64,000 nt of DNA from the NCBI GenBank assembly GCA_964016885.1, contig OZ024743.1:159898001-159962000 (forward strand). The letters run 5' to 3'. The translations under genes were made by a program, and so were the position numbers. Shown here in pieces: positions 6,492 through 59,455 of the stretch (positions within the stretch are counted from its first letter, which is position 1; each line of letters begins with the position of its first letter). This stretch comes from Eledone cirrhosa (lineage: Eukaryota). Below the pieces are notes generated by a model. It was not told the origin of the DNA and searched no databases. It worked only from the letters and a program-made list of their open reading frames with translations.

Positions 6492-9090
6492 TAGTTTACT
6501 TGAAGTCTTTTACCTTAAATGTATTTGAATATCCTTAATTTTTCGGAGGGAAGTAAAGGGGTTAATCCAGTGTTCTAATTAGCTTGCCAAGTGATGCTGA
6601 AGGAAATAGTAAAGAAATTCCATTCTATTTCTAATGTCAAAGAGTGAAGGTTAGGTTGATAAAGTGTTGCCTCTCCCTTTAAAATGGTTTGGACATTTGT
6701 GTCTAAGTGTGTGTGGGAGAATACGTAAAGGTGTAAGCATGTGTGTGTGTGTGCATGTGTGTGTGTGTGTGTGTGAATGTGGGAGGACATGTTTATATGT
6801 AAATGTGGGGGTTAGATGCTCTATCATGTTAAAACTGGTCTATGTGTGTGTGAGAGAGAATAAGTGAAGGTGTAGGCGTACGTGTGTGTGTGCGTGTGTG
6901 TGTGAGTTGGTACGTGGAGGTGTAAGTGTTGGGGCTAGTTGCTCTACCATGTTAAAAATTGGGTGTTGAGTTCTAGTCTGATATTGATTGGTGGTTGTGT
7001 TTTGTCTATAATAAGTGCTTCTTTAATTCTAAGATTGCCGAGGTTTCTTTCCTTAGATTCTATCCTAACTGTTATGTTTTTGTCGGTGTTTTTGCATCTC
7101 ACTACGTGTTTCTTAAATGAGGAAGCGTTAGTGTTGAGGTGTTCTTTTATTCTAATGTGAAGTGGTCCGGTGGTGCTACCTATGTAAAAAATGCTGCATT
7201 TGTCGCTCTCTAATCGTATACGACGTAAGCCTGGTGGCATAGGTCTGTGTTATCGATGGGGAAGTTGGCTAGCCTGCAGCGGCTGTCATGTCTGGTGGAG
7301 TGTCGTTTGGTTAGCTGTCCGCATAGAGAAGGTCCTGAGTGGGCTAGCTGGATATCTACGCCCTCTCGATTGATAACTCTGCGGATGGCTGTTGTTTTTC
7401 GTCACTGAAGCGTCGGAGCTTCAGGAAGCAGGTGTTAATGCCTCGGGTGTGGTTTCCTCTGTTGTTTCTGGCACGGTTCGCGGTGGAAGTCGGGTATGCG
7501 TTCAGTTTAAGTACTTCTAGGAAATGTGTGGTGTGTGTTTCCCGGTCTCTTGCGTCGGTGCATCTGTTCTGAACACGTGTTAGTTCGTTCCTTATGTATC
7601 CGAACTTATCGCTGACTGGGAGGGCTGATCTGAAATGTACGCACAGGTCCCTGCTGGCAGCTTTTTTATAGAAGCAGGTGTGGATGTCGCCTTCCTCTCT
7701 TATCCTGAGTTGGAAGTCCATTAGGGATAGGAATCCGCGGTCACCGGGTGTTCCATGCTGAACTTTATATTGGCGTCCATGATGGAGAATGTCATGTATA
7801 TTTTATCCGCTTCTTCACGGGATGATGTAACGATGAGTATGTCATATATGTATCGGGTTAAGAAGGTATAGGAATGGCAGCTGTTGAGGGCTCGGCATTC
7901 CAGCTAGTTCATATAAGTTATGGCCAGCAGGCCCGATAGGCTGGATCCCATGGGTAATCCTGTTGTCTGTCTGTATGTGTGGTGGTGGAAGGTGAGTACG
8001 TGTTGTCCTCTGTGAAGGACAAAAGCTGGTGTATGTCGGTCGGATGGAGGCCGTAGCAGTGGACGTCTTCTGCAACCACGCAGTCCGTCAATAAATCAAC
8101 AGCTGGAAGAGCGGGGACTGTAGTGTAGAGGGATACAACGTCGAGACTAAAGGCATATCTATTAAATTTAAGTTGCTCTGGCTGGAGTTGGTGTAGTCTA
8201 CATATGACCTCGTCGGAGCTACTGACATGCCCGGGAAAGGTGGAGAGTAGAGGCTTGAGGACCTGGGAGAGGAGCCAGGATATTTTGTATAGGTGCCCTT
8301 CTATGCTAGAGACGATGGGTCGTATTTGTGTCTTAGTACTATTCTTGTGGGTCTTGATGAGGTGATAGAAAGTGGGGGGTCTCCTATTTCTAGTTGTGTA
8401 ATTGAACTACTACAGATGTCGAACCAGATGGAGTTGGCTTATTTTTCGATCTGGGCTGCAGCTATGTCCGAGACCTCTGTATACATTTCGTTGTCGCTTA
8501 AGTGTTCAAAGGCTAGATTGCTGTATGTGGCTTGAGAGATGACACAAAACTCTTTACATTTGTAGGATGGTAAGTATATGAGTTCCCTATTCCGCAGGTT
8601 ATTCAGGGTTATTCAGAGTTGTTGCGTCCTGGAGCGGTTTGCGACTATCTTCTTCTGTTTCCGTAAGATGTTAAATACGGAATGTTTTAGCCTCGAGAGT
8701 TTCTCTTCCAGCTCGCAGTTGGCAGACGGTGGACAGAGTGGGCGGTCCAGTTGGTATATCGGGAATCTGGTTGTGTTAGACTCCGTGGTGCTGTTGTCGA
8801 GGGTCGATATCCATTTTAGTTGCTAGGCGGCCCGACAGAAATTCGTTTCTATGTCGATCCATAATTTGTCGTCCAGTCTCTGTTTCAATATGAACTTGGA
8901 ACCCAGGCTGAGGAGGTCTAGTTCATCTCGAGAGAGGGATCCTGTCAAGTCTGTGACGAAGTGTTTTGCGTCAGGTGTGTTGTTGGTCAGGGCGCCGCTA
9001 GGTTCGATGTTGGTACCGTCTTCTTCGCCGATGTTGGTGTTTAGCGTTGGGTTGTTGTTAGGACGGTCAACCGTGCTGAGTTTGAGAAAT
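6368..9090 (-). mobile_element. Degenerate Penelope-like retroelement (RT + GIY-YIG), Penelope/Poseidon-like
   Basis: ORF 6944-7240 has FYIGSTTGPLHIRIKEHL...LRIKEALIIDKTQPPIN (GIY-YIG). ORF 7356-7721 is the RT thumb (DFQLRIREEGDIHTCFYKK). Catalytic motif relic RYIYDIL near 7850. N-terminal LSRDELDLLSLGSKF near 8900. Frameshifted. Confidence 0.9.
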
Positions 9091-9778: not shown

Positions 9779-10223
9779 GTTGCCAATAAGAAACACACGC
9801 ACCAGTTGCTTTCACTCCAATTTATTATAAATTCAATTTACAAATTTAAGAATTTATAAATTTCCGGTTGGTTGGCTGGTTCCACAACCAGACGATTGTT
9901 CATATATTGTCAAAATTCTTTCGTCACACATTCTGTGACCTCTTGAGTGACTGGCGATTCTTTTCTTTGTTTTTGTGCCTCTCCTTTGTTCTGTCCTACG
10001 CCATCTTGTTTTTGCGTAGGACAGAACAAAAGAGAGGCACAAAAACAAAGAAAAGAATCGCCAGTCACTCAAGAGGTCACAGAATGTGTGACGAAAGAAT
10101 TTTGACAATATATGAACAATCGTCTGGTTGTGGAACCAACCAACCAACCGGAAATTTATAAATTCTTAAATTTATAATAAATTGGAGTGAAAGCAACTGG
10201 TGCGTGTGTTTCTTATTGGCAAC
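9779..10223. repeat. Near-perfect ~215-bp-arm fold-back hairpin element
   Basis: Arms 9779-10001 and 10014-10223, 12-nt spacer, one 13-nt indel. The left arm continues as a ~90-nt tail; related tail fragments at ~11850 and ~33490-33545. Confidence 0.92.
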
Positions 10224-10531: not shown

Positions 10532-11815
10532 ATTGAAAGAGTGAAGAATAACATGGTCAACAGTACAAAAAAGGGGGTTTATTTACAGTATAACATTTGT
10601 TTCACTGATTAAGTTGTCTAAAAATTGCCGAACACTTGAAGCTGTGCCACTCAATTTTAAATACGTTTTTAGCTTAATCAGATCATCAGAGAAACTGTTA
10701 AAATATGTTCAGTTTTAACAAATTCAAATTACAACATCATTAATAAAGATAGAGAGAAAAAAGAAAGTGAGATAGAGAGAAAAAAAGAAAAAGAAAAAGG
10801 AGAAAATGAAAAAAGAGAAAGATATAGAGAAAGATGAGAGAGAGAAAAGAGGAGAGAAAGAGAAGAGAAAAGGATAAATAAAAATAAAAGGTAAATAAAA
10901 ATAAAAATTAAAATAAAGGGAAAAATAATGATATCAACAATAAATGAATAAATGCTAATAAACAAGTTACATCGAGGATGATACAAAACAATACAAAATA
11001 TGAAAATAAATAAATAAATAATGCTTATATGTGCGAAGAAAAGTAAACATAGTATGATTATTGAGAGTAGTTGTGGTGTTGATGGCTAAAATTTAGAGAT
11101 ACGAAAGTATAAACATGAAAATGTTAAATAAATTCATGTATGTATTCGTTATTTTAATATATTAATTAGATAATAAATTACTTATTTGATTAATTAATTG
11201 TAAGTTATATTAGAAGTAAAAATAATACGATAAGATATAATGTAAGAGATGAAATAAATTTAGGGAGAGAAATAGAAAGATAGAAAATGAAAGAGAGAAA
11301 ATATAAAATATAAAAGGTTATGATGTTGGTTCATTGACAGTTGATGACAATAATAATAATAATTGTTTCTACTTTTGGCACAAGGCCATCAATTACCCAG
11401 TGCATTACTGGTACTTTATTTTATCGACCCCGATAAGGATGAAGGGCAAAGTTAACCTCGGCGTGATATGAACTCAGACCGCAACTATGCTGGAAAGCAT
11501 GGCGTTCGACCCTCTACCGATACTGCCAATTCACCGCTAATAATAGGTTATTATAACAGGTTATTATAATAGGTTATTATAATAGGTTATTATAATAGAT
11601 TTAAGTCGTACAATTTGAGTTATGGAATAGATGGGGTGAATTAAGTTGGTCTAATATAATCGAATTTGGTCGCCGTTTTATGCCTACAGAAAATAGTTCG
11701 TTCAATTTTGCTGTTAAGTAGCATTTTGTTGTATTGTAAAATTTGGAATAGTTCCATATTACAAAGTCCACAGTGGGACATGCCAATTCTATAGGCCATT
11801 GCTGTTGATAATGTT
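10532..11815 (-). mobile_element. 3' fragment of PLE (GIY-YIG tail, 3' UTR, pLTR with expanded-stem-II HHR at ~10585-10697)
   Basis: Reverse complement aligns along its length with 50600-51780. Minus-strand CTGATGA at 10683-10689 and GAAAC at 10599-10603. Confidence 0.85.
11362..11537 (-). mobile_element. tRNA-derived SINE inserted in the PLE 3' UTR
   Basis: Same family as 42095. Absent from the paralogous position near 50825. Confidence 0.88.
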
Positions 11816-11872
11816 ATCCAGCTGTATGTATGTATATATATATATATTATGCTTTGGGAGGGTCATGTTGCC

Positions 11873-13302: not shown

Positions 13303-15668
13303 TTTTTTGACAGCGGTAAGAAATTGTTTTCTTATATCAATGTTTAACGGGCTTCCACTGATGATTTATAAGTGCCCACCTAAATATATTCTTACATGAA
13401 TATATATTAGGCTTCTACATGAACTGGAAACATTCTCCCAACTTGTAGAAAACTTATAATGAAACAATTGTTTGGAGAGAGAGATATACTTTAACTTTAA
13501 TTATATCTCATATAATAATACAACTGGTTTTTCCACATTATACATATTGTTAGCACCCCAAACACTTAAATTACGTTTATATTTTAATATAACCTAATGT
13601 TTGTAGAGTGAGATGGTTACCAGTCAGAGTTTAGCTTTAAACTATCTCTGTTATTGTATTAAATATTTACTCTTGATTGGCCAGAGGTGTTTATTTCCAG
13701 GTTCCTTATGAATTTGACTTTCCGTATTTATTACTGTTGTGAAATATTGTGGCCTTTTTTTGGTTGTAACTTGTCTGTTTTTTAGCCTAAGAAAATATAT
13801 ATATATGCCTACGTATATAATTACATGCATATATGTATTTATTTTCTTTTATTAATTGAGTTCTTTACACGAGGAATTAATATTGGTTTTGTAATAACTA
13901 ATTAACCCGCGTGTGTTTTATATTTTACTCTTAATTCGGCCAGAGAATTATATTCCCATTTGCCCTTTATAGCATAACTTTCTGCATTTACTGCGGTTAT
14001 GAGAAGCAGTTCTTATTCGGGTACAACTTCTGATTTAGCCTAAGAAAATATCTATATGCGTGTGTAATTTATACAAGCATATATTTATTTTTTTATTTTC
14101 AATTGAGTTCTTAAACACGTTGGATTGATAATGTTTTCAAAAAAACTAATTAACCCGCGTGTATATTATTATTTGTTTTCCTCATTTCGTGGATCGTGGG
14201 TTGTCTCCCCTTCCCGCTTCGTGTCGCTATGATACTTCCTCAATCAAAAACTACTGGAATTTCAAATTTGGCGGTCATTCGAGGTGAGAGAGAGCAACTT
14301 TACGGACACGATTTTTGACAGCGGTAAGAAATTGTTTTCTTATATCAATGTTTAACGGGCTTCCACTGATGATTTATAAGTGCCCACCTAAATATATTCT
14401 TACATGAATATATATTAGGCTTCAACATAAATGGAAACATTCTCCCAACTTGTAGAAAACTTATAATGAAACAATTGTTTGGAAAGAGAGATATACTTTA
14501 ACTTTAATTATATCTCATAAAATAATACAACTGGTTTTTCCACATTATACATATTGTTAGCACCCCAAACACTTAAATTGGGTTTATATTTTAATATAAC
14601 CTAATGTTTGTTAAGTGAGATGGTTACCAGTCAGAGTTTAGCTTTAAACTATCTCTGTTATTGTATTAAATATTTACTCTTGATTGGTCAGAGGTGTTTA
14701 TTCCCAGGTACCTTATGAATTTGACTTTCCGTATGTATTACTGTTGTGAAATATTGTGGCTTTTTTTTTGTTGTAACTTCTGTTTTTTAGCCTAAGAAAA
14801 TATATATATATGCCTACGTATATAATTACATGCATATATGTATTTATTTTCTTTTATTAATTGAGTTCTTTACACGAGGAATTAATATTGGTTTTGAAAT
14901 AATTAATTAACCCGCGTGTGTTTTATATTTTACTCTTAATTCGGCCGGAGAATTATATTCCCATTTGACCTATATAGCATAACTTTCTGCATTTACTGCG
15001 GTTATGAGAAGCAGTTCTTATTCGGGTACAACTTCTGATTTAGCCTAAGAAAATATCTATATGCGTGTGTAATTTATACAAGCATATATTTATTTTTTTA
15101 TTTTCAATTGAGTTCTTAAACACGTTGGATTGATAATGTTTTCAAAACAACTAATTAACCCGCGTGTATATTATTATTTTTTTTCCTCATTTCGTGGATC
15201 GTGGGTTGTCTCCCCTTCCCGCTTCGTGTCGCTATGATACTTCCTCAGTCAAAAACTGCTGGAATTTCAAATTTGGCGGTCATTCGAGGTGAGAGAGAGC
15301 AACTTTACGGACACGTTTTTTGACAGCGGTAAGAAATTGTTTTCTTATATGTTTAACGGGCTTCCACTGATGATTTATAAGTGCCCACCTAAATATATTC
15401 TTACATGAATATATATTAGGCTTCTACATATACTGGAAACATTCTCCCAACTTGTAGAAAACTTATAATGAAACAATTGTTTGGAAAGAGAGATATACTT
15501 TAACTTTAATTATATCTCATAAAATAATACAACTGGTTTTTCCACATTATACATATTGTTAGCACCCCAAACACTTAAATTGGGTTTATATTTTAATATA
15601 ACCTAATGTTTGTTGAGTGAGATGGTTACCAGTCAGAGTTTAGCTTTAAACTATCTCTGTTATTGTAT

Positions 15669-15752
<84 letters not shown>

Positions 15753-16352
15753 ATTATATTATTATTATATATTATTTTTTTTATTTCAATTGAGTTCTTA
15801 ACACGTTGGATTGATAATGTTTTCGAATAGACTGATTAACTCGCGTGTGTATTATTTTTTTTTCCTCCTTTTGTGGATCGTAGTTGTCTCCCCTTCCCGC
15901 TTAGTGACGCTATAATACTTCCTCAGTCAAAAACTGCTGGAATTTCAAATTTGCCGGTCATTCGATGCGGGAAGGAGCAACTTAACGGACACGACTTTTA
16001 ACTTTGGTAAGAAATGTTTTTCTTATATCAAAGTTTATTGGGCTTCCACTGATGATTTATTAGCGCCCACCTAAATATATTCTTACATGAATGTATATTA
16101 GGCTTCTGCCTAAACTGGAAATATTCTCCGAATTTGTAGAAAACTTATAATGAAACAATTGTTCGGAAAGAGAGATATACTTTAACTTTAATTATATCTC
16201 ATAAAATAATACAACTGGTTTTTCCACATTATACATATTGTTAGCACCCCAAACACTTAAATTGGGTTTAAATTAAAATATAACCTAATGTTTATTGAGT
16301 GAGATGGTTACCAGTCAGAGATTAGCTTTAAACTATCTCTGTTATTGTATTA
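13303..16352 (+). repeat. Tandem array of a ~1005-bp HHR-bearing monomer (starts ~13309, 14317, 15322, ~16000)
   Basis: Periods are 1008, 1005 and ~680 bp (third unit has a deletion replaced by (TA)n). CTGATGA at 13358, 14366, 15367, 16049. GAAACAATTGTT at 13461, 14468, 15470, 16152. Confidence 0.93.
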
Positions 16353-16353
16353 T

Positions 16354-16382
<29 letters not shown>

Positions 16383-16387
<5 letters not shown>

Positions 16388-16571
16388 GATGAGATTCTAC
16401 ATGACTAGAACTGTTTCATTCTTTAGAAATCATCAGGAATTCCTGATGATTTCTAAAGAATGAAACAGTTCTAGTCCTGTAGAATCTCATCTATATTAAA
16501 ACTTTTATACTCTGCAATGTATTGAGTACCTTACTTACTGTGGTTACCTCCGATTCAACACGGAATAACGT
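16383..16571. mobile_element. Family I mini fold-back element: 57-bp-arm palindrome of two outward-facing HHRs plus ~75-nt tail
   Basis: Palindrome 16383-16496 centred on gaattc. attc-CTGATGA-tttctaaagaat-GAAAC-AG-ttctagtc-CT-GTA-gaat. Copies at 58431-58623 and 59134-59326. Confidence 0.9.
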
Positions 16572-16604
16572 ATATTTATATATATATATATATATTAGCG
16601 GATT

Positions 16605-17150
16605 TAGCGAACCGATTAAGTACATACCCAACAATACTAACTCCTTCAAACATAATAATAGGAAAAGAAATAATCTGTTTCACACCCCCTTACTCTCTAC
16701 CAGTTAAAACTAATGTAGGCAAAAAATTCCTAGAGCTCTTAGATAAACATTTTCCTAGAACACATAGATACTATAATATCTTTAATAGAAACTGTGTCAA
16801 AATTAGCTATTCCTGCAGTCCCCCTATTAAATCTTATATCATCAATAAGAAAACACCCAGAGAACATCAAAATTGCTCCTGGAGGGTCAAAAGTGAATGC
16901 ACATTACAAGGTAAATGCAACACTAAAGCCATTGTATATCCGGCTAAATTGACAACCATCAGCAACAACCTACCAGCCACCAGCGAACGATATGTGGGTA
17001 TGACACAAGACAAATACAAAACGCGTTATTACTCACATGTCGCATCTTTCCGACATCCAGAAATAAGATTTACAACAACTCTGGCTAGCAGAATATGGGA
17101 TTTGAAAGACCAAGGTATTTTTCAAATATTTCACTATGTTTTAAATTGCT
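16605..17150 (+). mobile_element. PLE fragment (RT-EN linker and GIY-YIG), Neptune/Nematis-type
   Basis: Translates KTNVGKKFLELLDKHFPRTHRYYNIFNRNCVKISYSC, a Cys linker, and ERYVGMTQDKYKTRYYSH...TTLASRIWDLKD. Confidence 0.85.
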
Positions 17151-35582: not shown

Positions 35583-35628
35583 CAAGTGTGTGATTACAAC
35601 CCACGACCTTTGAATCGCGGATCCATAA

Positions 35629-36420
35629 TCACACGAATCCCTTCAGGGACCGTAGCAAAAGGCACTCAACTAGGTTAGCGGACCTGGTGTGGGACCTGAA
35701 AGACCAAGGCACTCCGTACGTCCTGGAATGGAGTATCGTTCGCCTTGCGAGAGCATATTCGGCTGGAAGTAGAAAGTGCCAATTATACCTACACGAATCC
35801 ATGAAGATAGTCAGACTGAAAGATGACGCGGTCAACCTGAAGTCTGAAATTATCATGACATGCAGACACCAGAGAAGGTGCACATTTGCAGCGTAGAATC
35901 CTCCGGGTGGCACGGGCCAGGGGCATGGGACCGGGTACGCACAGACCCGAACGACCCAACAGGATTATGGGACCTGACGCCATGCCCTGATGACATTGTG
36001 CGACCGGTGTGGCAAACATAAGTAAACCAGGGTGCGCACCTGACCGAGCACGCAACATTGGGCAGGTACATCGCCTAGGCCGAGACAGGCTAATATGGGG
36101 TCTACGGTCGTCCGGTCCAATATCCCAAACATATAGAACAGCCATGGCATACCCCATGGTGACCGGGACAATCGTCCCTTTGAATGTGTACCCCGTCAAT
36201 CGTGACTATATACTCTCCACATGTCCCACTTTGGAACAATTATTATTACTGCTATTATTGTTTTGTTATTGTTACTTGTTCCATATACGTACCAATGTTT
36301 GAACCTCATACTACCTGTGTGTAGTATATCACATGGATACACGCACCTTCTCCTGTACCTCCCTGTCCGTTTTTTATTCACCCGTCTTTTATTTATCTAT
36401 TTGTGAAGTTACATACAGAT
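35629..36420 (+). mobile_element. PLE GIY-YIG C-terminal fragment and 3' UTR
   Basis: WDLKDQGTPYVLEWSIVRLARAYSAGSRKCQLYLHE...LKSEIIMTCRH (ORF 35687-35896). Confidence 0.8.
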
Positions 36421-43693: not shown

Positions 43694-44540
43694 CGTCGTG
43701 GGATAGTTAAACGTACGGCTTTGTTTGACTCAACAAGATGTTTCCATAGTTATGCAGCGAGTTCGCGGTAATTTCTATGCAGGTTATACTTGGAATAATA
43801 ATAGTTAAAGAAAGAAGAAGAGTAACAAGGTCGGCTGTTCAATAAGGGTTTTATTTAAAGTACTAACAATTGTTTCGTTGATCAGGTGTGTCTAGAGTTC
43901 GATAATCGTTTGAGGTTGCGTAAATCTATCTCTAATACATTGTGTACCACTGGTCAACACATCAGAGCACGTAGATATGAGAATGGTTCACTCGAGGCAA
44001 GACTTATATAGAAACGTAGCGTAACACCTAGACAATAACATCAATAATAAAATAGCGTATAATTAAAACAATAACATCAATGGTAAAACATGTATGGTAA
44101 ATAGATAGAGCAGTTATATTATTTTATTATAGATGTTATTGTCTAGGTGTTACGCTACTCCTCTATATAAGTCTTGCTCGAGTGAATTATTTTCATATCT
44201 ACATACTCTGATGTGTTGACCAGTAGTAGCAATGTATTGGAGATCGATTGACGCAACCTCAAGCGATTAACAAACTCTAGACACACCTGATCAACGAAAC
44301 AAGTGTCAGTACTTTAAATAAAACCCTTATTGTACAGCCAACCATGTTACTTTTCTTCTCTCTTTAACTATTATTACTCCAAGTATAATCTGTATAGAAA
44401 TTACCACGAACTCGCTGCATAACTATGGAAACATCTTGTTGAGTCAAACAAAGCCGTACGTAAAACTATCCACGACGCGGTGTATTTAACTGGATTACCT
44501 CTAACTGGATTACCTATAACGATACCATGTTATCCCATAT
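43694..44540. mobile_element. Head-to-head inverted pLTR pair (~360-bp arms) with expanded-stem-II HHRs and ~60-nt tail
   Basis: Arms 43694-44054 and 44120-44477. HHR tact-CTGATGT-gttgaccag...ctgatcaac-GAAAC-AAGT-GTC-agta at 44204-44311. Ends at a long (TA)n tract. Confidence 0.88.
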
Positions 44541-45479: not shown

Positions 45480-48290
45480 ACCAAAATATACGGTAGTGTC
45501 CAATCCGTATGAAGAACTCAATGTAATCCAAATATCATGAAAAGAGAAGATACATTCAAAAATGTTCGATGAAAATCACAGGAAAACAGAGTCAAGATAA
45601 ATTAATAAAAACAATGAATAAAAACAAAGAACAAGTTCCTTATATTAAAAAATCCATCATTTTACGATCGTTTCTAGGATATATATGTGTGTTGGTATGT
45701 ATATCATATAGATCTATGTAAAAATATTACAAACTATCAGAGGAAATATACATACCTTCACATATATATGCTGACTTCAGAAATAATTGTTTCTACTTTA
45801 AGCACAAGGCCAGCAATTACCCAGAGCATTACTGGTAGTTTATTCTATCGACCCCGTAAGGATGAAAGGCAAAGTCAACCTCGGCGGGATTTGAACTCAG
45901 ATCGTAAAGGGACGTAACTATGCTGGAAAGCATGGCGTCCGACCCTCTACTGATACTGCCAATCCACCGCTCAGAAATAATGAGATTTGTTTATTGAAAA
46001 AAACCAACAAAGATTTAATATAATAGATCTGTTTGGGAACAGGTTTTGAATTGACCAATAGAAAAGTAGTAAGAGGTCAAGTTGATAGAATAGTAGTAGT
46101 AGAAATTTAATTTAGGGGTAGAGGAATGCAGACTTATGTTTTGAATGGAAAGAACTCTTTGAATGAAAAGAATACTTTGGGGATGAAAAGAGGTCAAGCC
46201 GGTGAAGGGTACACGAACACTTGATGTTATTAAATGAATAATGTTAAAAACGAAGGAGAGTAAAATTTTAGGGTAAAGGTATTAGTGAGAAATAACAATC
46301 TTATTTAAAACACAAGGAATTTAGATCTATAACAATAAATTAAATTAATTGATAGGTATACTTATAGGGATAAATTTATATTAATTCATATGAATTTGAT
46401 AAATAAAAATTAGATGTTATTAAAGAATGTTGTTAAAAACGAAGAAAAATAAAATTTTGGGATAAGTGTAGTAGTGAGAAATACCAATCTTATATAGACT
46501 ACAAGGAATCTAGATTCATAACAGGAAATTAAATTAATTTACATGTATAGTTTTAGGTATTAATTTTAGGAAAAGAGAGCTGTAAGAGGGAAATAAGATT
46601 ATGAAGTTCTCTGTAGTAAAGTACTAATTATAGGTTAACTAAATAAAAAAAACTAATTATAATAATATGTAAAATATAAGTGTAAGGTGTATATTAATTA
46701 GGTTTATAATATTTGAAAGTTCTTCTAATTCTATGATTGCAAGATATAATTAATTTTTGTCGCTTATTTAATAGGATATCCTTAGATTTCATTATTTCAA
46801 CAAGTTCCTGGGAGCATAATCTACACTCATATCTGTTATTTTGATAAGGGGTGGCCCTTTTGAGCACACTCCAGGTCAGGTTGTAATCGATATTCTTTTT
46901 TCTATAATTATTAATTGTTTCAGCCAAGGATGTTGTATTAGCTAATGCGGCATTTTTTAAACTATTGTGGGTATTAAATCTTACTTTAAATTGGTTAGAC
47001 GTAACTCCTATATATGAATAAGTTGAGTCCTTAGTGCTAATTTTACATTTATATACTATTTTATTAATAAGACAATTTCCCTTTAATGGGCAATTTCTTT
47101 TGTTTCTACAGTTACAACCATTCGTGAATATTATATCAGAGGAGTTAGTCCAATTTGGTGTGAAATTTACTCGACATGCTATAAGTGAAAGAGATGGTGT
47201 TTTGTTGCGGTTTATTTTAGTATTATGGTTGGTTTGGTGTGTTGGTGGTATATTCGGGGTTATATTACATGTATATGCGTTGTACGCACTTATATTTTGT
47301 TGTATATTTTTGGTAGTGGAGTAGGAAAATTTGACAGTTGATCTATTTAAAATTTGATGGTATTTATGGTTTGGCGGGAAGTTTTTCTCTAGAATAGGAA
47401 AAAGTTTTTTAGCGATATTATCTTTAATTTGTAGATTAAGTGGATCATTATACCAAGTAACTCGTCTATTACGGTTTCGATGTTGTTTTTTTTATATTTA
47501 TACGATGTATCAGGATGTTTACTAAGAGAGTTAGTATTAGTGCATTTATTATATATAGGTTTAGTTAGATTAACTGATGTAGGTGTTTTAGTCTGATTAT
47601 TAGGAATTTTGTTAGTAATGTTATTGGAGTATTAGGATGATTGGTTTTTTGAAAGTCATTATATTTTATGTGAGAAGAGGTAGATAAATTAAGTTTTAGG
47701 TTGGTATTTTGGGGTGTAGTGTGAGTGGCATCTATGTGTGTGTTTTTCATTTGTTGTTTGTTGGTAATATTGTGTTTTATGTTTGAAGTATTATTGGTGC
47801 AAGGTATATAGACTAATTTGTTTTTGTGGCCGCTTTTAGCTAAAGCTTCGTTATAAAAGGGTGTATTTTTATCGAATACATCCTGTTTAGATGAAAGGTT
47901 AGAAATTCTGAGTGAGATATTATATGCTAGGTTTTTAAGAATAGATCTAGGGTGATTGGATTGTGAGTGTACGTAATGTAAGTTTTGGTTAGGTTTATGG
48001 TAAGGTTGGTAGATACCCGTAGATAAGTCTAAAGTTATTTTGCTGGTGTTTTCAAATGTAATAGTGAGATTATAATAGTCTTTCAGGAAAGTTCTAATAA
48101 GTTTTTTTATTTTTTTCAATTTCTGATAGGCTAAGATTAGTGGAAAGAAGAAGACAGTCGTCACGATATAAACCACCTTTAAGGTGGAGAAAAGAAGAAT
48201 TTATAGTAGAAATACGCCCACAAGATCGGTAATTTGGGCAGAATCACTAGAACCCATAGTAATGTCGAAGAGATTACTATATGTATTTCT
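45480..48290 (-). mobile_element. Degenerate PLE (RT C-half, Cys linker, GIY-YIG, 3' UTR with HHR at 45658-45785)
   Basis: FDITMGSSDSAQITDLVG, YQPYHKPNQNLHYVHSQSNHP, CNCRNKRNCPLKGNCL, YIGVTSNQFK, CRLCSQE. ~190-bp tandem duplication in the 3' UTR (46224/46413). Confidence 0.9.
45788..45970 (-). mobile_element. SINE with 11-bp TSD overlapping an HHR core
   Basis: TSD tcagaaataat at 45777-45787 and 45971-45981. Confidence 0.9.
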
Positions 48291-48619
48291 GTTCCAATAT
48301 TCCTTCTGAAATTCCAAGGGATAACAAAATATCGTTATAGGAAATCCACTTAGAGGTTCTGAATACTCCGTATTGTGGATAGTTTTAACGTACGGCGTTG
48401 TTTGATTCAACAAGAGGTTTCTATACTATGTTTACTTTTCTTCGCACACATATAACATTTTTTCATTTATATTTCATCATATTTTGTATTGTTTTTATCA
48501 TCCTCGTTGTAACTTGTTTATTAGCATTTAAGTGTTCAGCAATTTTTAGACATCTTAATCAGTGAAACAATTTTTAAATACCTTTTTTATACTATTGACC
48601 ATGTTATTCTTCATTCTTT

Positions 48620-51600
48620 CAATATTATGCCTATGAACTTCACCTCATGAACATGATAAACGAAACCAAATTCAAAAAACGAACGCATCACAACAAACTG
48701 CAAAATAACATCGATGCACTACTAAAATAATTGCGTAACACCAACGGTATTATAGTTAAGCAGACAACACATAAAATGTATACAACATGAGCCTTAATAC
48801 ATACAACAACTTTATACGGCGGGAATTACACAAAAAATACAAGAAAACTACAGAATCTACATTCAATAGCATTAATAAAGAAGGACTTAACATAGTAAAA
48901 TATCTGATAGAACCGAATCTCTGACCCCTTGTAAACCCACTTTTAATTTAAAAGATCATAAATGCAACTTCGAAACTGACCCTACTATTAGATTATTATG
49001 CCCATTAAAATCTGATATAGGCAAAATTAGCAAGTATATACTAAATAGAATAATACCAGAAATTAGGGAAATCTACTAATTAAGCTTTGGGGTAACACTA
49101 ATGAAGCAATAGATTGGTTTAGCAAATTAGACAATAAGGAATCTTCCAACTTCATACAATTTGACATCAATGACTACTACACCTCTATTTCCCCAGTCCC
49201 ACTAAATAAGGCATTAACATTTGCAAAACAAACTCTGACAACAGATGAAATTAAAATAATACTAGCTGCTATAAGAACAATCATTAGGTTCGATAATAGT
49301 TACTGGGAAAGAAAAAATAGACAAAATAACTTTGATATCACAATGGAATCGAACGATTCAGTTCAAGTAACGGACATAGTCGGAATATATATAGCACATA
49401 TCTTGCATAAGGAATTTGATAACCTAGAAGGAAGAATTTATAGAGATTACTTTTAGCTAAAAGCCTAAATAATCAAAACTTGGAAAGATTACGTAAAAAG
49501 ATTAGAACAATCTTCAATAAATTAGGCCTAAACATCACTTTTGAACTCAACTCTAAAAAAGCTAACTTCTTAGATGTGTCACGTAACCTAAACACAGGAC
49601 TAATAGAACGATTCCATAAAAATAACGAAAATCTAGCCTACATTAGTTATAACTTAAACCACCCTCGCTCCAAAATTAACTCCATAGCACATAGTATATC
49701 CCTTAGAATTTCACGCTTATCTTCTAATACAAAGATTTTTAACGAACACGCTAACTACTACAACATAGCTTTACTCAAGGCAGGCCATAAAGAGAGGCTT
49801 AAATACAAACAATAACAACACACTTAACAGAAATAACACTATCCACACCTATAGAAAAAGCAAATCTAGGACTAAACATAGAAATTGGCAACAAGCACTA
49901 GAAATAATTGAACCGAATACTAATATAAGGATTACTAGAAACTATAGAAGATGCAGAGATAGAAAATACTAATGGTTCAATCCAATATTTAAATCCTCTA
50001 TAAAAACCAAACTACCTTCTACTTTCTTTAAATTAATTGACAAGCACTTCCCTAAACATCACAAATACCATAAAATCTTTAATAGAAATACTATCAAACT
50101 ATCATACTCTACTGCCACCAACATAGAATCGTACATATATAAAATTAACTATAAAAGAATATCTAATACAAATAGCCTGCAAACAAGCACCATAACACCA
50201 AATACAAAACACAAAAAAATAACAACATCACAACCAAAGCACACGTCAGAACACATCACGACAATACATCAACAAACCCAATTCTCAGCCCATACATAAC
50301 ATACAAAACCGTATCGCGGAATCGGCACATAGGAAAGCATTAAAATGTAACTGTCATTTACCTGATAAATGCCCACTACAAAAGAAATGCCTGGAGTCAA
50401 ATATAGTGTACCTATGTACTATAAATTCAGGCAACTTAGCATGGCACTACATAGGTTGGACGGCGCGGGAGTTCAAGAAAAGATGGTATGTCCACAGACA
50501 CTATAAATAACCGTAAACTTATGAACACAACGACGCTTGCCAATAAAATATGGCAGCTCAAAGATACAAACCAGGAATACAGAATTAGCTGGGTGAAGTT
50601 GTCAACGTCAATAGCCTATAGAATTGGCATGTCCCATTGTAGACCTTGCAATATGCAATTATTCCATATTTTAAAATATAACAAAATGCTGCTTAACAGC
50701 AAAATTAACGAACAATTTTCTGTAGACATAAAACGGCGATCAAATTCAATAATTTTAGACCAACTTAATTCATCCCATCTATTCCATAATTCAAATTGTA
50801 CCACCTGGATCTATTATAATAACCTATTATTGTTATTATTGTCATCAACTGTCAAAGAACCAACATCATAACCTTTTATATTTTATATTTTCTCTCCTTC
50901 ATTTTCTATCTTTCTATTTCTTTCCCTATATTTATTTCATCTCTTACATTATATCTTATCGTATTATTTTCACTTCTAATATAACTTACAATTAATTAAT
51001 TACTTATTTTATTTATTTATTAATGTAACTAATACATACATGAATATATTTAACATTTTCATGTTTATAGCAACATATCTCTATATTTTAACCACCAACA
51101 CCATAACTACTCTCAATAATCTTACTAGGCGGTGGATTGGCAGTATCGGTAGAGGGTCGGATGCCATGCTTTGACGCATAGAGCTACGGCCCTTGCCATT
51201 CTGAGTTCAAATCCCGCCGAGGTTAACTTTGCCTTTCATCCTTACAGGCTCGATAAAATAAAGTACCAGTAATGCACTGGGTCATTGCTGGCCTTGTGCC
51301 TAAAGTAGAAACAATAATCTTACTATGTTTACTTTTCTTCCCACACATATAACATTTTTTTATAAATTTGTTTATTTAATTTTATCATATTTTGTATTGT
51401 TTTTTTATCATCCTTGCTCTAACTTGTTTATTAGCATTTATTCATTTATTGCTGTTGTCTTTGTTGTTGTTTTTCTCTCTGTTTTTCTTTTTCTTTTTCT
51501 TTATCTTTTATCTTTGTTCTTCATCCTTTTCTCTTCTTTCTTTTTTCTCTCTCTTTCTTTATTAATGATGTTGTAATTTGAATTCGTAAACGCTGAGCAT

Positions 51601-51780
51601 ATTTTCAACAGTCCTTTCTGATGATCTGGTGAGGCTAGCAACGTATTTACAATTGAGTGGCACAGCTTCAAGTGTTCAGCAATTTTTAGACAACTTAATC
51701 AGTGAAACAATTGTTAAATACTGTAAATAAAACTCTTTTTTTTTGTATTGTTGACCATGTTATTCTTCACTCTTTCAATA
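48620..51780 (+). mobile_element. Near-complete but frameshifted PLE (RT + GIY-YIG) with 3' pLTR HHR at ~51609-51723
   Basis: FIQFDINDYYTSI, NFDITMESNDSVQVTDIVG, KANFLDVS, CNCHLPDKCPLQKKCL, WHYIG. CTGATGA at 51618 and GAAACAATTGTT at 51704. Ends in (TA)n. Confidence 0.9.
51128..51311 (+). mobile_element. Full-length SINE with 14-bp TSD
   Basis: TSD caataatcttacta at 51114-51127 and 51312-51325. Empty site in the paralog near 11050. Confidence 0.92.
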
Positions 51781-51807
51781 TATATATATATATATATATT
51801 TTTTTTT

Positions 51808-51984: not shown

Positions 51985-52372
51985 AGAAATTAAAAGATGG
52001 TTAAAAAAGTTCCACATATTTTATTATGCGTATTTCGAAAACAACATCATCCTGGGACAAAAATTGTGTTCTCATCAGATAAAATAAGGTAGCATGATAT
52101 GAGGTCTAAAAGCACTTGTGTTTTTAGTCCTCATATCATATATATATACTTGTTTTTAGGCCTCATATCATGTTACCTTATTTTATCTGAGGAGAACATA
52201 ATTTTTGTCCCAGGATGATGTTTTCGAAATGCGCATAATAAAATGTATGGAACTTTTTTAACCATATTTTAATTTCTACTTTAATATATATTCCAGTTTT
52301 ACCAACAGTTGAGTGCTACTTATCTGATATATGCATAGTTTTATTGTTCTACAATATTACTCACCTCCTACA

Positions 52373-52884: not shown

Positions 52885-55288
52885 AGGGGATAACAAGTTA
52901 TCGTTATATGTAATCCAGTTAGAGGTTGTGAGTACACTGTATTGTGGATAGTTTTAACGTACGGCTTTGTTTGACTGAACAACATGTTTCCATAGTTAGG
53001 AAGCGAGTTCGCGAGAATTCCTATGCAGGTTATACTTAGAGTAATAATAGTGAAAGCATGAAGAATAACATGGTCGGCTGTACAAGAAAGGGCTTTATTT
53101 CAAGTATTAACAATTGTTTCATTGATCAGGTGAGTCTAAATGCCGCTAATCACTCGAAGTTGCGTCACTCGACCTTCAATAAAGTGTTTACCTCTGATCA
53201 ATTCCTCAGAATACTAGAGAACACACATATGGCAATTGTATATACAGCGTAGAATCAAAACTATAACATCAGAAATGAAATATAATGATAAATAGGTAAA
53301 GAAGTTACAGATGTAAAAAGTAAAAAAAATAAAAAAATAAGTAAAAGTATATAAGTACAGAATGCGATAGTAGTGGTAGTGAGTAAGTGTCTGGATAAAG
53401 ATGTGGGGTGGAGGTAGTACTAACATGAAAAGCAATATTCGATACATACATACATACGTGTAGAGAATAAGAGGAAGTAACAAATGACAGATAAAACAAA
53501 AAACAATAAATTCAAAATTAAGTGAGAGATACGAGCATGAGACATGAGGGCTAAGGATGGATGCTGAAGGGGGATTTTGATATATGTATGTGGTAAATAA
53601 TTGGCCCGCTGATTGTCTTATCTTTATGGGATTAATGTGGCTCCAGGGAGAGAGAGTGAAAGAAAGGTTAGGAGATTTATGATCTAGTGACCAGTCGGTT
53701 AGTTAACAGCTAATAACAGTGTGTTGATATGTATTCCGTACGTTAAAATTCCGGTGGTTCAGTTCTAATTTTTGGATTGCTGGGTCGAATCATGATGGTT
53801 TGAAATTTGTAGCTGCTTTGTGCCTACAGAAAATTGATCTTTCTATTTAGTTGTTGAGCAACATCTTATCGTACCTTAAAATATGGAATAGTTCCATATT
53901 GCAAAGTCCGCAGTTGGACATTCTATTGCTGTAGGCCCTTGCTCCCGATAATTTTGACCTGCTAATCCCATATTCCTGGTTTGTGTTCTTAAGCTGCCAG
54001 ATTTTATTGGCCAGCTTTGTAGAGTTCTCCAGTCTACGGTTCTTCATGGAGTGTCTGTGAACATACCCTCTTTTTATGAACTCCCCAGCCGTGGAACCTA
54101 TGTAATGCCATGGTAAGTTGCCTGAATTTATAGTACACAGGTACACCATACTTGAATCCAGGCATCTATTTTGTAGTGGGCACTTATCCGGTAGGTGGCA
54201 GTTACAGTTGGAGGCATTCCTGAGTGCAGGTTCTCCGTTGCGGTTTTGCATGTTGTTATCGGTGGGTTGAGATTTAGGCCTATTAATGTTTTGTTGTGAT
54301 GTGCCCTGATGTGTGTGTGGTTGTGGTGTTGTTATGTGTTTGCGTTTTGTATTTTGTGCTATGGTGTATGTTGGTAGGTTATTTTCTTTAGAGATTATTT
54401 TGTAGTTGATTTTATGTATGTGTGATTCTATGTTGGCTGCAGTAGAGTAAGATAGTTTGATAGTTTTTTCTGTTATAGATTCTATGGTATTTGTGTAGTT
54501 TATGGGAGTGTTTGTCAAATAGCTTAAAGAATGTAGAAGGTAGTTTAGTTTTTATAGCGGAGTTGAATATTGGATTGAAACATAAGTATTTCCTATCTCT
54601 GGATTTTCTATAGTTCCTAGGGGCCCTTATGTTAGTATTCAGTTCAGTTATTTCTGGTACTCGTTATCTAATTCTGTTTAGTCGTATGTTTATTATTTCT
54701 ATAGGTATGGATAGTGTAGCTGTCGTTAGGGCTGTTGTTGCTGTCTCTATCTGGTATGTATATGAGCCCCTCCTTATATCCTGCCTTATGTAAGCTATGT
54801 TATAATAGTTTGTGTGTTCGTTAAAAATCTCTAGGTTAGAAGATAGGCGCGATATTCTGAGGGATATACTATGTGCTGTAGAGTAAATTATGGCTCGTTG
54901 GTTAATAGAGCCCTTCCATAAAAATAACGAGAATCTAACCTACATTAGTTATAACTCAAACCAAACTCTATAATCAGTTTTTCTGATGATTGGATTAAGC
55001 ATACATTGTATTTAAAATTGAGTCGCACAACTGCAAGTGATTAGCAATTTTTAGACAGCTTAATCAATGAAACAATTGTTAATACTGTAAATAAAACGCT
55101 TTTTGTTATTCTTCACTCTTTCACTATTATTATTCCAAGATTAACCTGAATAGAAATTCACAGAACTCGCCAAATCACTACCTAAGGAAACCTCTTGTTG
55201 AGTCAAACAACGCCGTACGCTAAAGCTATCCACAATACGGAGTATTCACAACCTCTAACTGGATTATCTATAACGATAATTTGTTCTC

Positions 55289-55290
<2 letters not shown>
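52885..55290 (-). mobile_element. 5'-truncated PLE with 3' pLTR (HHR 53104-53214) and an inverted pLTR at its 5' end (54964-55290, HHR ~54975-55087)
   Basis: ORF 53847-54518 has CNCHLPDKCPLQNRCL..WHYIGST (GIY-YIG). Minus HHR gtatt-CTGAGGA-attgatcag...ctgatcaat-GAAAC-AATT-GTT-aatac. (TA)n on both sides. Confidence 0.9.

Positions 55291-57125: not shown

Positions 57126-59455
<2,330 letters not shown>

Follow-up and report, generated by a model that had tools for sequence, protein, structure and literature searches.

Six terminal repeats of decayed PLEs in a 64,000-nt stretch of the Eledone cirrhosa genome (contig OZ024743.1; the window) carry a type I hammerhead motif whose stem II is about 80 nt long and for which self-cleavage as a dimer is predicted. 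On balance, the long stem II is probably a tolerated lengthening that has been kept folded. The ribozyme and the retrotransposon clade are both known; the long-stem variant, found in three families of one genome, is apparently undescribed.

The family-1 hammerhead motif

The cores of the six copies (family 1) lie at 44208(+), 43965(-), 53209(-), 54983(+), 51618(+) and 10689(-). The spacer from core position 9 to GAAA measures 81 nt in the first copy, 82 nt in the second and third, and 79 nt in the remaining three. A sequence-only reading of this DNA had reported six copies with core and GAAAC about 80 nt apart, which agrees with the 79-82 nt measured here, and had called them PLE pLTRs with a hammerhead, an identity upheld by the ORF context, the core and the helices. 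When the window was searched with the pattern core-N75-100-GAAACAATTGT, seven matches were obtained, against 0.00 in 100 shuffles. A structure scan yielded 10 long matches, where 30 block shuffles gave 0.4 on average, and its strict form yielded 5 compared with 0.

The motif has the features of a type I hammerhead: three helices around the core, an open helix I and UH at the predicted cut site. On the 3' side of stem II, family 1 shows GAAAC, a 10-nt palindrome that would form stem III (intact in four of the six copies), U or C at position 17, and a short stem I, with AATAAA about 10 nt beyond stem I in five copies. The duplex between two palindromes has 10 bp and a computed energy of -9.6 kcal/mol, and no monomer hairpin is predicted. 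The CUGAnGA core and GAAA are exact in four of six family-1 copies and in all four copies of family 2, described below; the other two family-1 copies, the pair at 43965 and 44208, depart from CUGAnGA. Stem I has 3-6 bp in four copies according to the strict scan, has a bulge or mismatch in the copies at 54983 and 10689, and displays compensatory changes between subfamilies.

The best preserved motif (53103..53215, -) lies 3' of ORF remnant C and has a 6-bp stem I, the core CUGAGGA, an A10.1-U11.1 pair and an 82-nt spacer. The motif at 54975..55087 (+), with a 79-nt spacer and U.U at 10.1/11.1, belongs to an inverted piece that adjoins ORF C and has a long tail to 55290. U10.1-U11.1 is known as a tolerated, active natural variant (PMC3088659). 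Two more motifs have 79-nt spacers: one (51609..51724, +) belongs to element A, within its downstream pLTR (51321-51781), and the other (10585..10696, -) closes a short, truncated copy on the 3' side, the ORF end of which is at 11659-11829. The upstream pLTR of element A occupies 48424-48625 (+), plus an inverted tail at 48318-48425 (-). A seventh family-1 copy, at 48527-48625, has suffered an internal deletion that took the 5' half of the hammerhead.

An Rfam scan (E<=1) returned no hammerhead model among the best 150 of 180 matches listed, and the short-stem motifs of the window were also unlisted; the matches listed were microsatellite-driven miRNA models only. The top miRNA-model matches stem from a near-perfect inverted repeat of about 39 bp at 9962-10053. 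The possibility that, as in D. virilis, an intron has its 3' splice site within helix I was considered and discarded: AG after pyrimidines occurs in four of six copies and is absent from the pair at 43965 and 44208, and the deletion at 48527 lacks a GT start. The pyrimidines and AG of the helix I 5' strand, which may be compared with the intron end of D. virilis Penelope, are located at 51590-51612, 10695-10720(-), 53212-53230(-) and 54968-54978.

Fold and covariation of the stem II extension

As modelled, the extension is one long imperfect hairpin that continues stem II. The closing helices quoted in the sequence-only reading are present, with 9/9 pairs in the 53209 copy, 9/9 plus U.U at 10.1/11.1 in the 10689 copy and 8/9 in the 43965 and 44208 copies. 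The closing helix encloses about 60 nt, less than the 65-70 nt given for the insert before. Its inner 50-nt block (44233..44282, + in the 44208 copy) would contain an invariant internal loop (UAUU/UAGAC), a 7-bp helix and a bulged 6-bp helix, with an 8-nt apical loop (44255-44262, +) at the tip. An inner hairpin had been said to switch between cac/gtg and cgc/gcg; the former is found in three of six copies and the latter in one, and the other two have a cgc/gtg G.U intermediate and a broken cgc/acg.

RNAalifold predicted 25 pairs from the six copies, 9 of them with two-sided change. Because related sequences can beat letter shuffles, whole columns were shuffled, a procedure that keeps relatedness. 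Two-sided change in stem II as a whole (8/22 pairs) was matched by 0/1000 column shuffles, and the earlier claim of a covarying structure within stem II is therefore sustained. For the inner 50 nt, without the closing helix, the consensus energy was -7.75 (z -3.9/-4.3; 3/1000 column shuffles as low), and two-sided change in 5/13 pairs was matched by 3 and 7/1000. The inner-block result persisted with one sequence per subfamily (four sequences; 1-5/1000 column shuffles). Paired cells amounted to 88.7%, versus 24-40% for slid partners. As the alignment consists of six sequences in approximately 3-4 subfamilies, the two-sided changes represent few independent events. Single copies fold no better than shuffles (z -0.8 to +0.9 for the whole motif, -1.2 to +0.8 for the inner part), so that the structure is visible only in the alignment, as expected if the copies are decayed.

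Between subfamilies the insert is identical at 29-37 of 50 positions. Identity is 77-87% in the tail behind it (four long-tailed copies from different subfamilies) and 77% in the ORF. The sequence of the insert thus turns over faster than the neighbouring DNA, and its pairs are kept. The sequence-only reading had viewed the insert as a conserved accessory domain grafted onto the ribozyme. In that form the view lacks support and is a conceivable reading rather than the best one: the insert continues stem II, it is less conserved than the tail and the ORF, and the other families differ. The invariant loops may nevertheless have a function: in a block chosen after inspection of the alignment, 14/24 unpaired positions are invariant versus 9/26 paired ones, and they include a 9-nt invariant internal loop. 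In the six copies, the apical loop has no covarying partner within -300/+270 nt and no shared pseudoknot partner; 8-nt matches to the apical loop in the 43965 and 44208 copies were dismissed as pseudoknot candidates, as they are merely the other inverted arm. With a covariance model built from the six copies (R1), no further significant match was obtained, either elsewhere in the window (best E 0.39) or in 80 Hydra-type loci (best E 0.089).

The inverted pair at 43694-44540

The focal element (43694..44540) is formed by two 5'-truncated pLTR copies placed head to head. The arms are 87.2% identical over 794 nt by blastn, inverted identity spans 43694-44477, and the right arm terminates in (TA)n. 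The element has no ORF and no profile match to PLE proteins. A TATA-like box that precedes the core by about 45-50 nt (44162-44170, with a counterpart in the inverted arm) may be part of the pLTR promoter.

The right-arm motif (44203..44312, +) comprises the 5' strand of stem I (44203-44207), the core (44208-44214), stem II (44215-44295), GAAA at 44296, stem III (44298-44307, with its palindrome broken at 44303) and the 3' strand of stem I (44308-44312), and the cut is predicted after C44307. In the inverted arm (43860..43970, -), the core occupies 43965-43959 and stem II 43958-43877, stem III is palindromic and N17 is U43865. Both cores read CUGAUGU, and the two closing helices share a C.A mismatch.

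When reads and contigs were aligned to 44100-44540 at 80% likeness, 1729 and 1662 contigs and 3171 and 2993 reads were recovered. The family is therefore of high copy number, and three letters that break pairs in the 44208 copy are mostly the pairing letter in other genomic copies. At 44272, about 99% of them have G in place of A, which restores the C-G pair 44245/44272; at 44203, G replaces A in 80-88%. At 44303, the G of this copy is T in >99% of contig depth, against 25-39% of raw reads, of which many stop at 44302. Position 9 and the closing-helix C.A mismatch are not among the 40 of 122 read/contig differences listed, and the loose-end consensus of 14 contigs has U at position 9. On these grounds A9U, which is present in the two focal copies and in family 3, looks subfamily-wide.

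Other hammerhead families in the window

Families 2 and 3, as well as short motifs with spacers of 12-35 nt, had been missed by the sequence-only reading. Family 2 (13304..16352, +) consists of ORF-less tandem units of about 1 kb that end in (TA)n, with cores at 13358, 14366, 15367 and 16049. The 95-96-nt spacer is predicted to form an 8-bp stem that closes two hairpins (z -3.1 to -6.3). Tandem non-coding units with one type I hammerhead each are a trait of non-LTR retrozymes. Family 3 (45655..45790, -), 3' of element B, has one motif with the core CUGAAGU (45780-45774), a 99-nt hairpin spacer (z -5.6) and a palindromic stem III. A dispersed repeat (45782-45970) is inserted at its core with an 11-nt duplication. 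This repeat of about 190 nt (45782-45990), which we take to be a SINE, has further copies at 2867, 11357, 42096, 43164 and 51128, and also lies in the 3' regions of element A and the 10689 copy.

The inserts of family 1 have no similarity to those of families 2 and 3 (18/18 comparisons at >=29 of 300 shuffles); the only candidate similarity between families 2 and 3 is an AT-rich stretch of 22 nt (3 and 5 of 300 shuffles). Spacers of 12, 14, 20, 28-35, 79-82, 95-96 and 99 nt coexist in the window. Those of 12 nt occur in overlapping head-to-head pairs at 16354-16595 (cores 16436-/16443+), 58407-58655 (58559-/58573+) and 59110-59358 (59262-/59276+), and the 16436-/16443+ pair adjoins a Hydra-type ORF remnant at 16594-17119. 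A family with 14-nt spacers and a palindromic stem III is found at 1377(-), 1833(+), 57551(-), 58134(+) and 58899(+); its members are arranged both in tandem and inverted, and (TA)n runs separate them. Hammerhead-like motifs with a mid-size stem II (20 and 28-35 nt), some of them decayed, lie at 52078(-), 52187(+), 52647(-), 56707(+), 57005(-) and 60708(+), and bridge the sizes between the short and long forms.

PLE ORFs and element ends

Element A (48620..50760, +) carries a decayed Hydra-type PLE ORF with RT, a CxCX5C linker and a GIY-YIG endonuclease, and spans profile positions 69-703 of 706 with several stops and frameshifts. Element B (46694..48311, -) belongs to another family: its Hydra-type ORF is decayed, lacks its 5' part and is 41% identical to A in amino acids. 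Element C (53796..54909, -), also 5'-truncated and decayed, covers profile positions 420-701 and lacks its 5' 60%; it is 77% identical to A in nucleotides and 70% in amino acids. A and C carry different family-1 subfamilies, the inserts of which match at 33/50 positions. None of A, B and C is intact. The sequence-only reading had tied the motifs to autonomous coding PLEs; the linkage to ORF remnants is real, and the claim of autonomy falls with the stops, frameshifts and truncations.

Judged from their sequences, the ORFs fit the Hydra clade as characterised in PMC8557442, with a C-terminal GIY-YIG, CxCX5C, CxxC/CxH and (TA)n ends. The CxCX5C linker, and CxxC and CxH around conserved E and N, can be read in all three translations, although the CxH of A lies past a frameshift. 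The Pfam GIY-YIG match was below the cut-off (E 0.002, in B). At the place aligned to the DKT motif, the decayed copy A reads DNT, and B and C start after that place; the first 68 profile positions, the region of the N-terminal RWK motif, are missing from every copy in the window. The best named protein match of the PLE ORFs is an Argonauta hians protein. Other habits of PLEs are present too: pLTRs, tandem and inverted 5'-truncated copies, and (TA)n insertion. In a tree built from 315 columns and 157 of the 176 sequences (remnant D was dropped because of its short length), A and C were joined (1.0) and their grouping with B reached only 0.31-0.71; the long stems may have had one origin or several.

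Family-1 copies end 58-62 nt (two copies) or 210-229 nt (three copies) 3' of the predicted cut, and the extension is located upstream of these ends. The terminus is (TA)n in five of six copies, and one is without it. By analogy with an Anolis element that has two internal RT starts, according to the part of that report available (PMC11167929), we infer that the ends may be RT starts on uncleaved RNA.

Additional pieces deserve mention. The optional tail of family 1, about 160 nt long compared with 30-40 nt in other PLEs, is found at 44355-44536, 52887-53047, 55130-55290 and 48318-48425; in the 53209 copy one of its frames is open for 88 aa, yet it has no profile match and was rejected as an ORF start. 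In the inverted piece adjoining ORF C (54893-55290), a short ORF fragment is joined directly to the hammerhead, and the piece combines an A-type insert (43/50) with a C-type tail (84%), being either a recombinant or a third subfamily. At 35603-36165 a GC-richer Hydra-type endonuclease remnant is followed by CTGATGA at 35987, which was rejected as a fourth long motif (no closing helix, z -0.7). Another repeat, 8427-8822(-), weakly matches the N-terminal region of the profile of Hydra-type proteins (11.6 bits).

Hydra-type loci elsewhere

The metagenome loci compared were the best 80 of 256 confirmed Hydra-type loci, ranked by likeness to a non-cephalopod query; none of these 80 is closely related to A or B (best 46%). 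A hammerhead was detected in 44 of them, with 41 distinct spacers, all of 10-30 nt, and the clade therefore does not need the extension. Among the 36 loci without a match, 28 have <300 nt downstream; the 8 longer ones gave 3 short motifs, 2 decayed short motifs, 1 short motif on the opposite strand, and 2 without any. The latter two are L058:1723-2400, which has a lone core, and L017:2308-2666. Position 9 was A in 49/49 matches, in a scan that allowed A or U, and U10.1-U11.1 was the commonest state (25/49). Viral contigs gave 14 pattern matches and no relatives.

Discussion

How might a stem II of this length be accommodated? Minimal PLE hammerheads are described as dimeric, with no tertiary contacts and low rates (PMC4209133; PMC6155905; PMC6765202, each available in part). 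A tandem PLE transcript would carry two hammerheads whose palindromes would pair into a stable stem III, and the paired RNA would be cut after position 17. As there is no contact between loop 1 and loop 2 in minimal PLE hammerheads, the tip of stem II would be free to grow. Fold-back of the added sequence would keep the core active, with the consequence that pairing would be selected while the sequence drifts. Uncleaved RNA would be the template for new copies, and RT would begin at one of two sites, about 60 or about 220 nt 3' of the cut; with such starts, the extension would be copied along and would not be the RT start site. Two observations speak against tolerated lengthening: unpaired positions are more invariant than fold-back alone needs, and long stems II, present in three families of this genome, were seen in 0/44 motifs elsewhere, a distribution that could mean selection for length.

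The same observations lend themselves to a tentative alternative, which we consider rather unlikely: the extension may be a functional module whose invariant loops bind the RT-endonuclease or a host protein, or dock stem I, and thereby gate cleavage, with the families being convergent. The excess of invariant unpaired positions (14/24 versus 9/26) would be explained, as would the retention of a gap-free 50-nt block in subfamilies that differ at up to 42% and the presence of three long-stem families within a 64-kb window; moreover, a PLE hammerhead of Anolis is reported to cleave only if the element's protein is added (PMC11167929, available in part). However, family 1 shares neither sequence nor shape with the other long-stem families, its apical loop lacks a covarying partner, RT would start downstream of the extension, and the extension is absent from 44/44 hammerheads at other loci and from the 26/26 Hydra rows of File S2 of PMC8557442, in the part available. 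A bolder version, which we hold to be doubtful, is that PLEs of this lineage have repeatedly made the tip of stem II an 80-100-nt module that docks the RT-endonuclease and gates self-cleavage, which would make it a natural hammerhead switched by protein, in a class that would be large and invisible to current descriptors.

It is improbable that the motifs are mostly non-cleaving relics, with the fold kept for another purpose such as RNA protection or packaging and with catalysis, in the A9U subfamily at least, being weak or lost. The focal copies and family 3 do have U9 in place of the A seen in 49/49 other-locus matches, and A9U lowers the rate, at least 20-fold in one construct, but it is also found in natural RNAs that cleave (PMC10085705, available in part). 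Likewise, every copy retains sequence 3' of the cut site, yet insertion from uncleaved RNA has been seen even with an active ribozyme (PMC11167929, in the part available). PLE hammerheads are slow in vitro (PMC4209133, available in part); against the idea of relics, the core, GAAA, the stem III palindrome and stem I are retained here, the latter with compensatory changes. Finally, the inner covariation might arise from the small number and relatedness of the sequences and from fitting a structure to them, only the closing helix being real. The number of sequences (six) and the weak folding of single copies would agree with such an artefact, which is nonetheless very improbable: column shuffles that keep relatedness reach the observed values in only 3-7/1000 cases (1-5/1000 with four sequences), the slid-partner controls fail, and the C-G pair 44245/44272 is restored in other genomic copies. 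Tolerated lengthening kept folded is thus the reading that we favour.

Searches for PLE hammerheads use short limits for stem II, exemplified by the core-only search of PMC8557442, whose spacer was limited to 7-17 nt according to the part available; long motifs are therefore missed, and some PLEs may be wrongly scored as ribozyme-less. Natural long, covarying extensions offer a handle on what PLE hammerheads do and on whether the element's protein assists. Engineers insert aptamers at this same position of stem II. If the extension is neutral, its interest is modest: a fix for descriptors, and a case of structure outlasting sequence.

Comparison with known systems

PLE hammerhead variants are reportedly treated by Lunse et al. 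(2017). In the literature available to us, supplements, figures and Repbase/Dfam being places that could hold such a case, no structured stem II extension of 60-80 nt in a PLE hammerhead was found. The closest relatives are the Hydra-clade PLE hammerheads of Craig et al. 2021 (PMC8557442, available in part), which share the type I motif at the 3' end, a palindromic stem III, U.U/G-C at 10.1/11.1, U17 in several families, (TA)n targets and CxCX5C. They differ in stem II: the 26/26 Hydra rows of File S2, which include an Octopus bimaculoides family, have a stem II of 3-7 bp and a loop of 3-10 nt, while spacers are 79-99 nt here. In File S5 of the same paper, the 'half core' of the Octopus vulgaris Naiad was rejected as a hidden long stem II, as no GAAAC follows the core; inspected by eye, the last 150 nt of this element have GAAAC about 25 nt before CUGAUGA, a permuted order.

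The minimal PLE hammerheads of Cervera and de la Pena 2014 (PMC4209133) share the short helix I and the palindromic helix III that needs a dimer. Their helix II is larger than usual (7-8 bp) and has a high sequence turnover with covariation, and a structured extension of 60-80 nt is not described in the part of the paper available. Spacers of 79-99 nt depart from the short stem II (4-8 bp with a small loop) of this dimer-type minimal motif. Chrysovirus motifs have a so-called 'long helix II' of 6 bp, according to the part available of PMC13725137, and the word 'ribozyme' is absent from the available part of PMC13282606. A long natural insertion between the core halves is shared by the mammalian discontinuous Clec2 hammerhead (PMC6155905, PMC6765202, both available in part), which differs in being of type III, with 150-1500 nt in helix I, and in residing in a host mRNA.

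The nearest precedent is provided by the spike-moss PLE-X hammerheads of Craig et al. (File S2, in the part available), with a loop 2 of 35 and 29 nt marked as deviating; they have half the length or less, belong to another clade and kingdom, and appear in a table that shows no covariation analysis. Family 2, in turn, shares its ORF-less tandem units with the non-LTR retrozymes (PMC7229834; bioRxiv 10.64898/2026.07.22.740005; both available in part): its unit of about 1 kb stands at the upper end of their 51-972 bp, and its stem II is distinguished by a branched fold of 96 nt.
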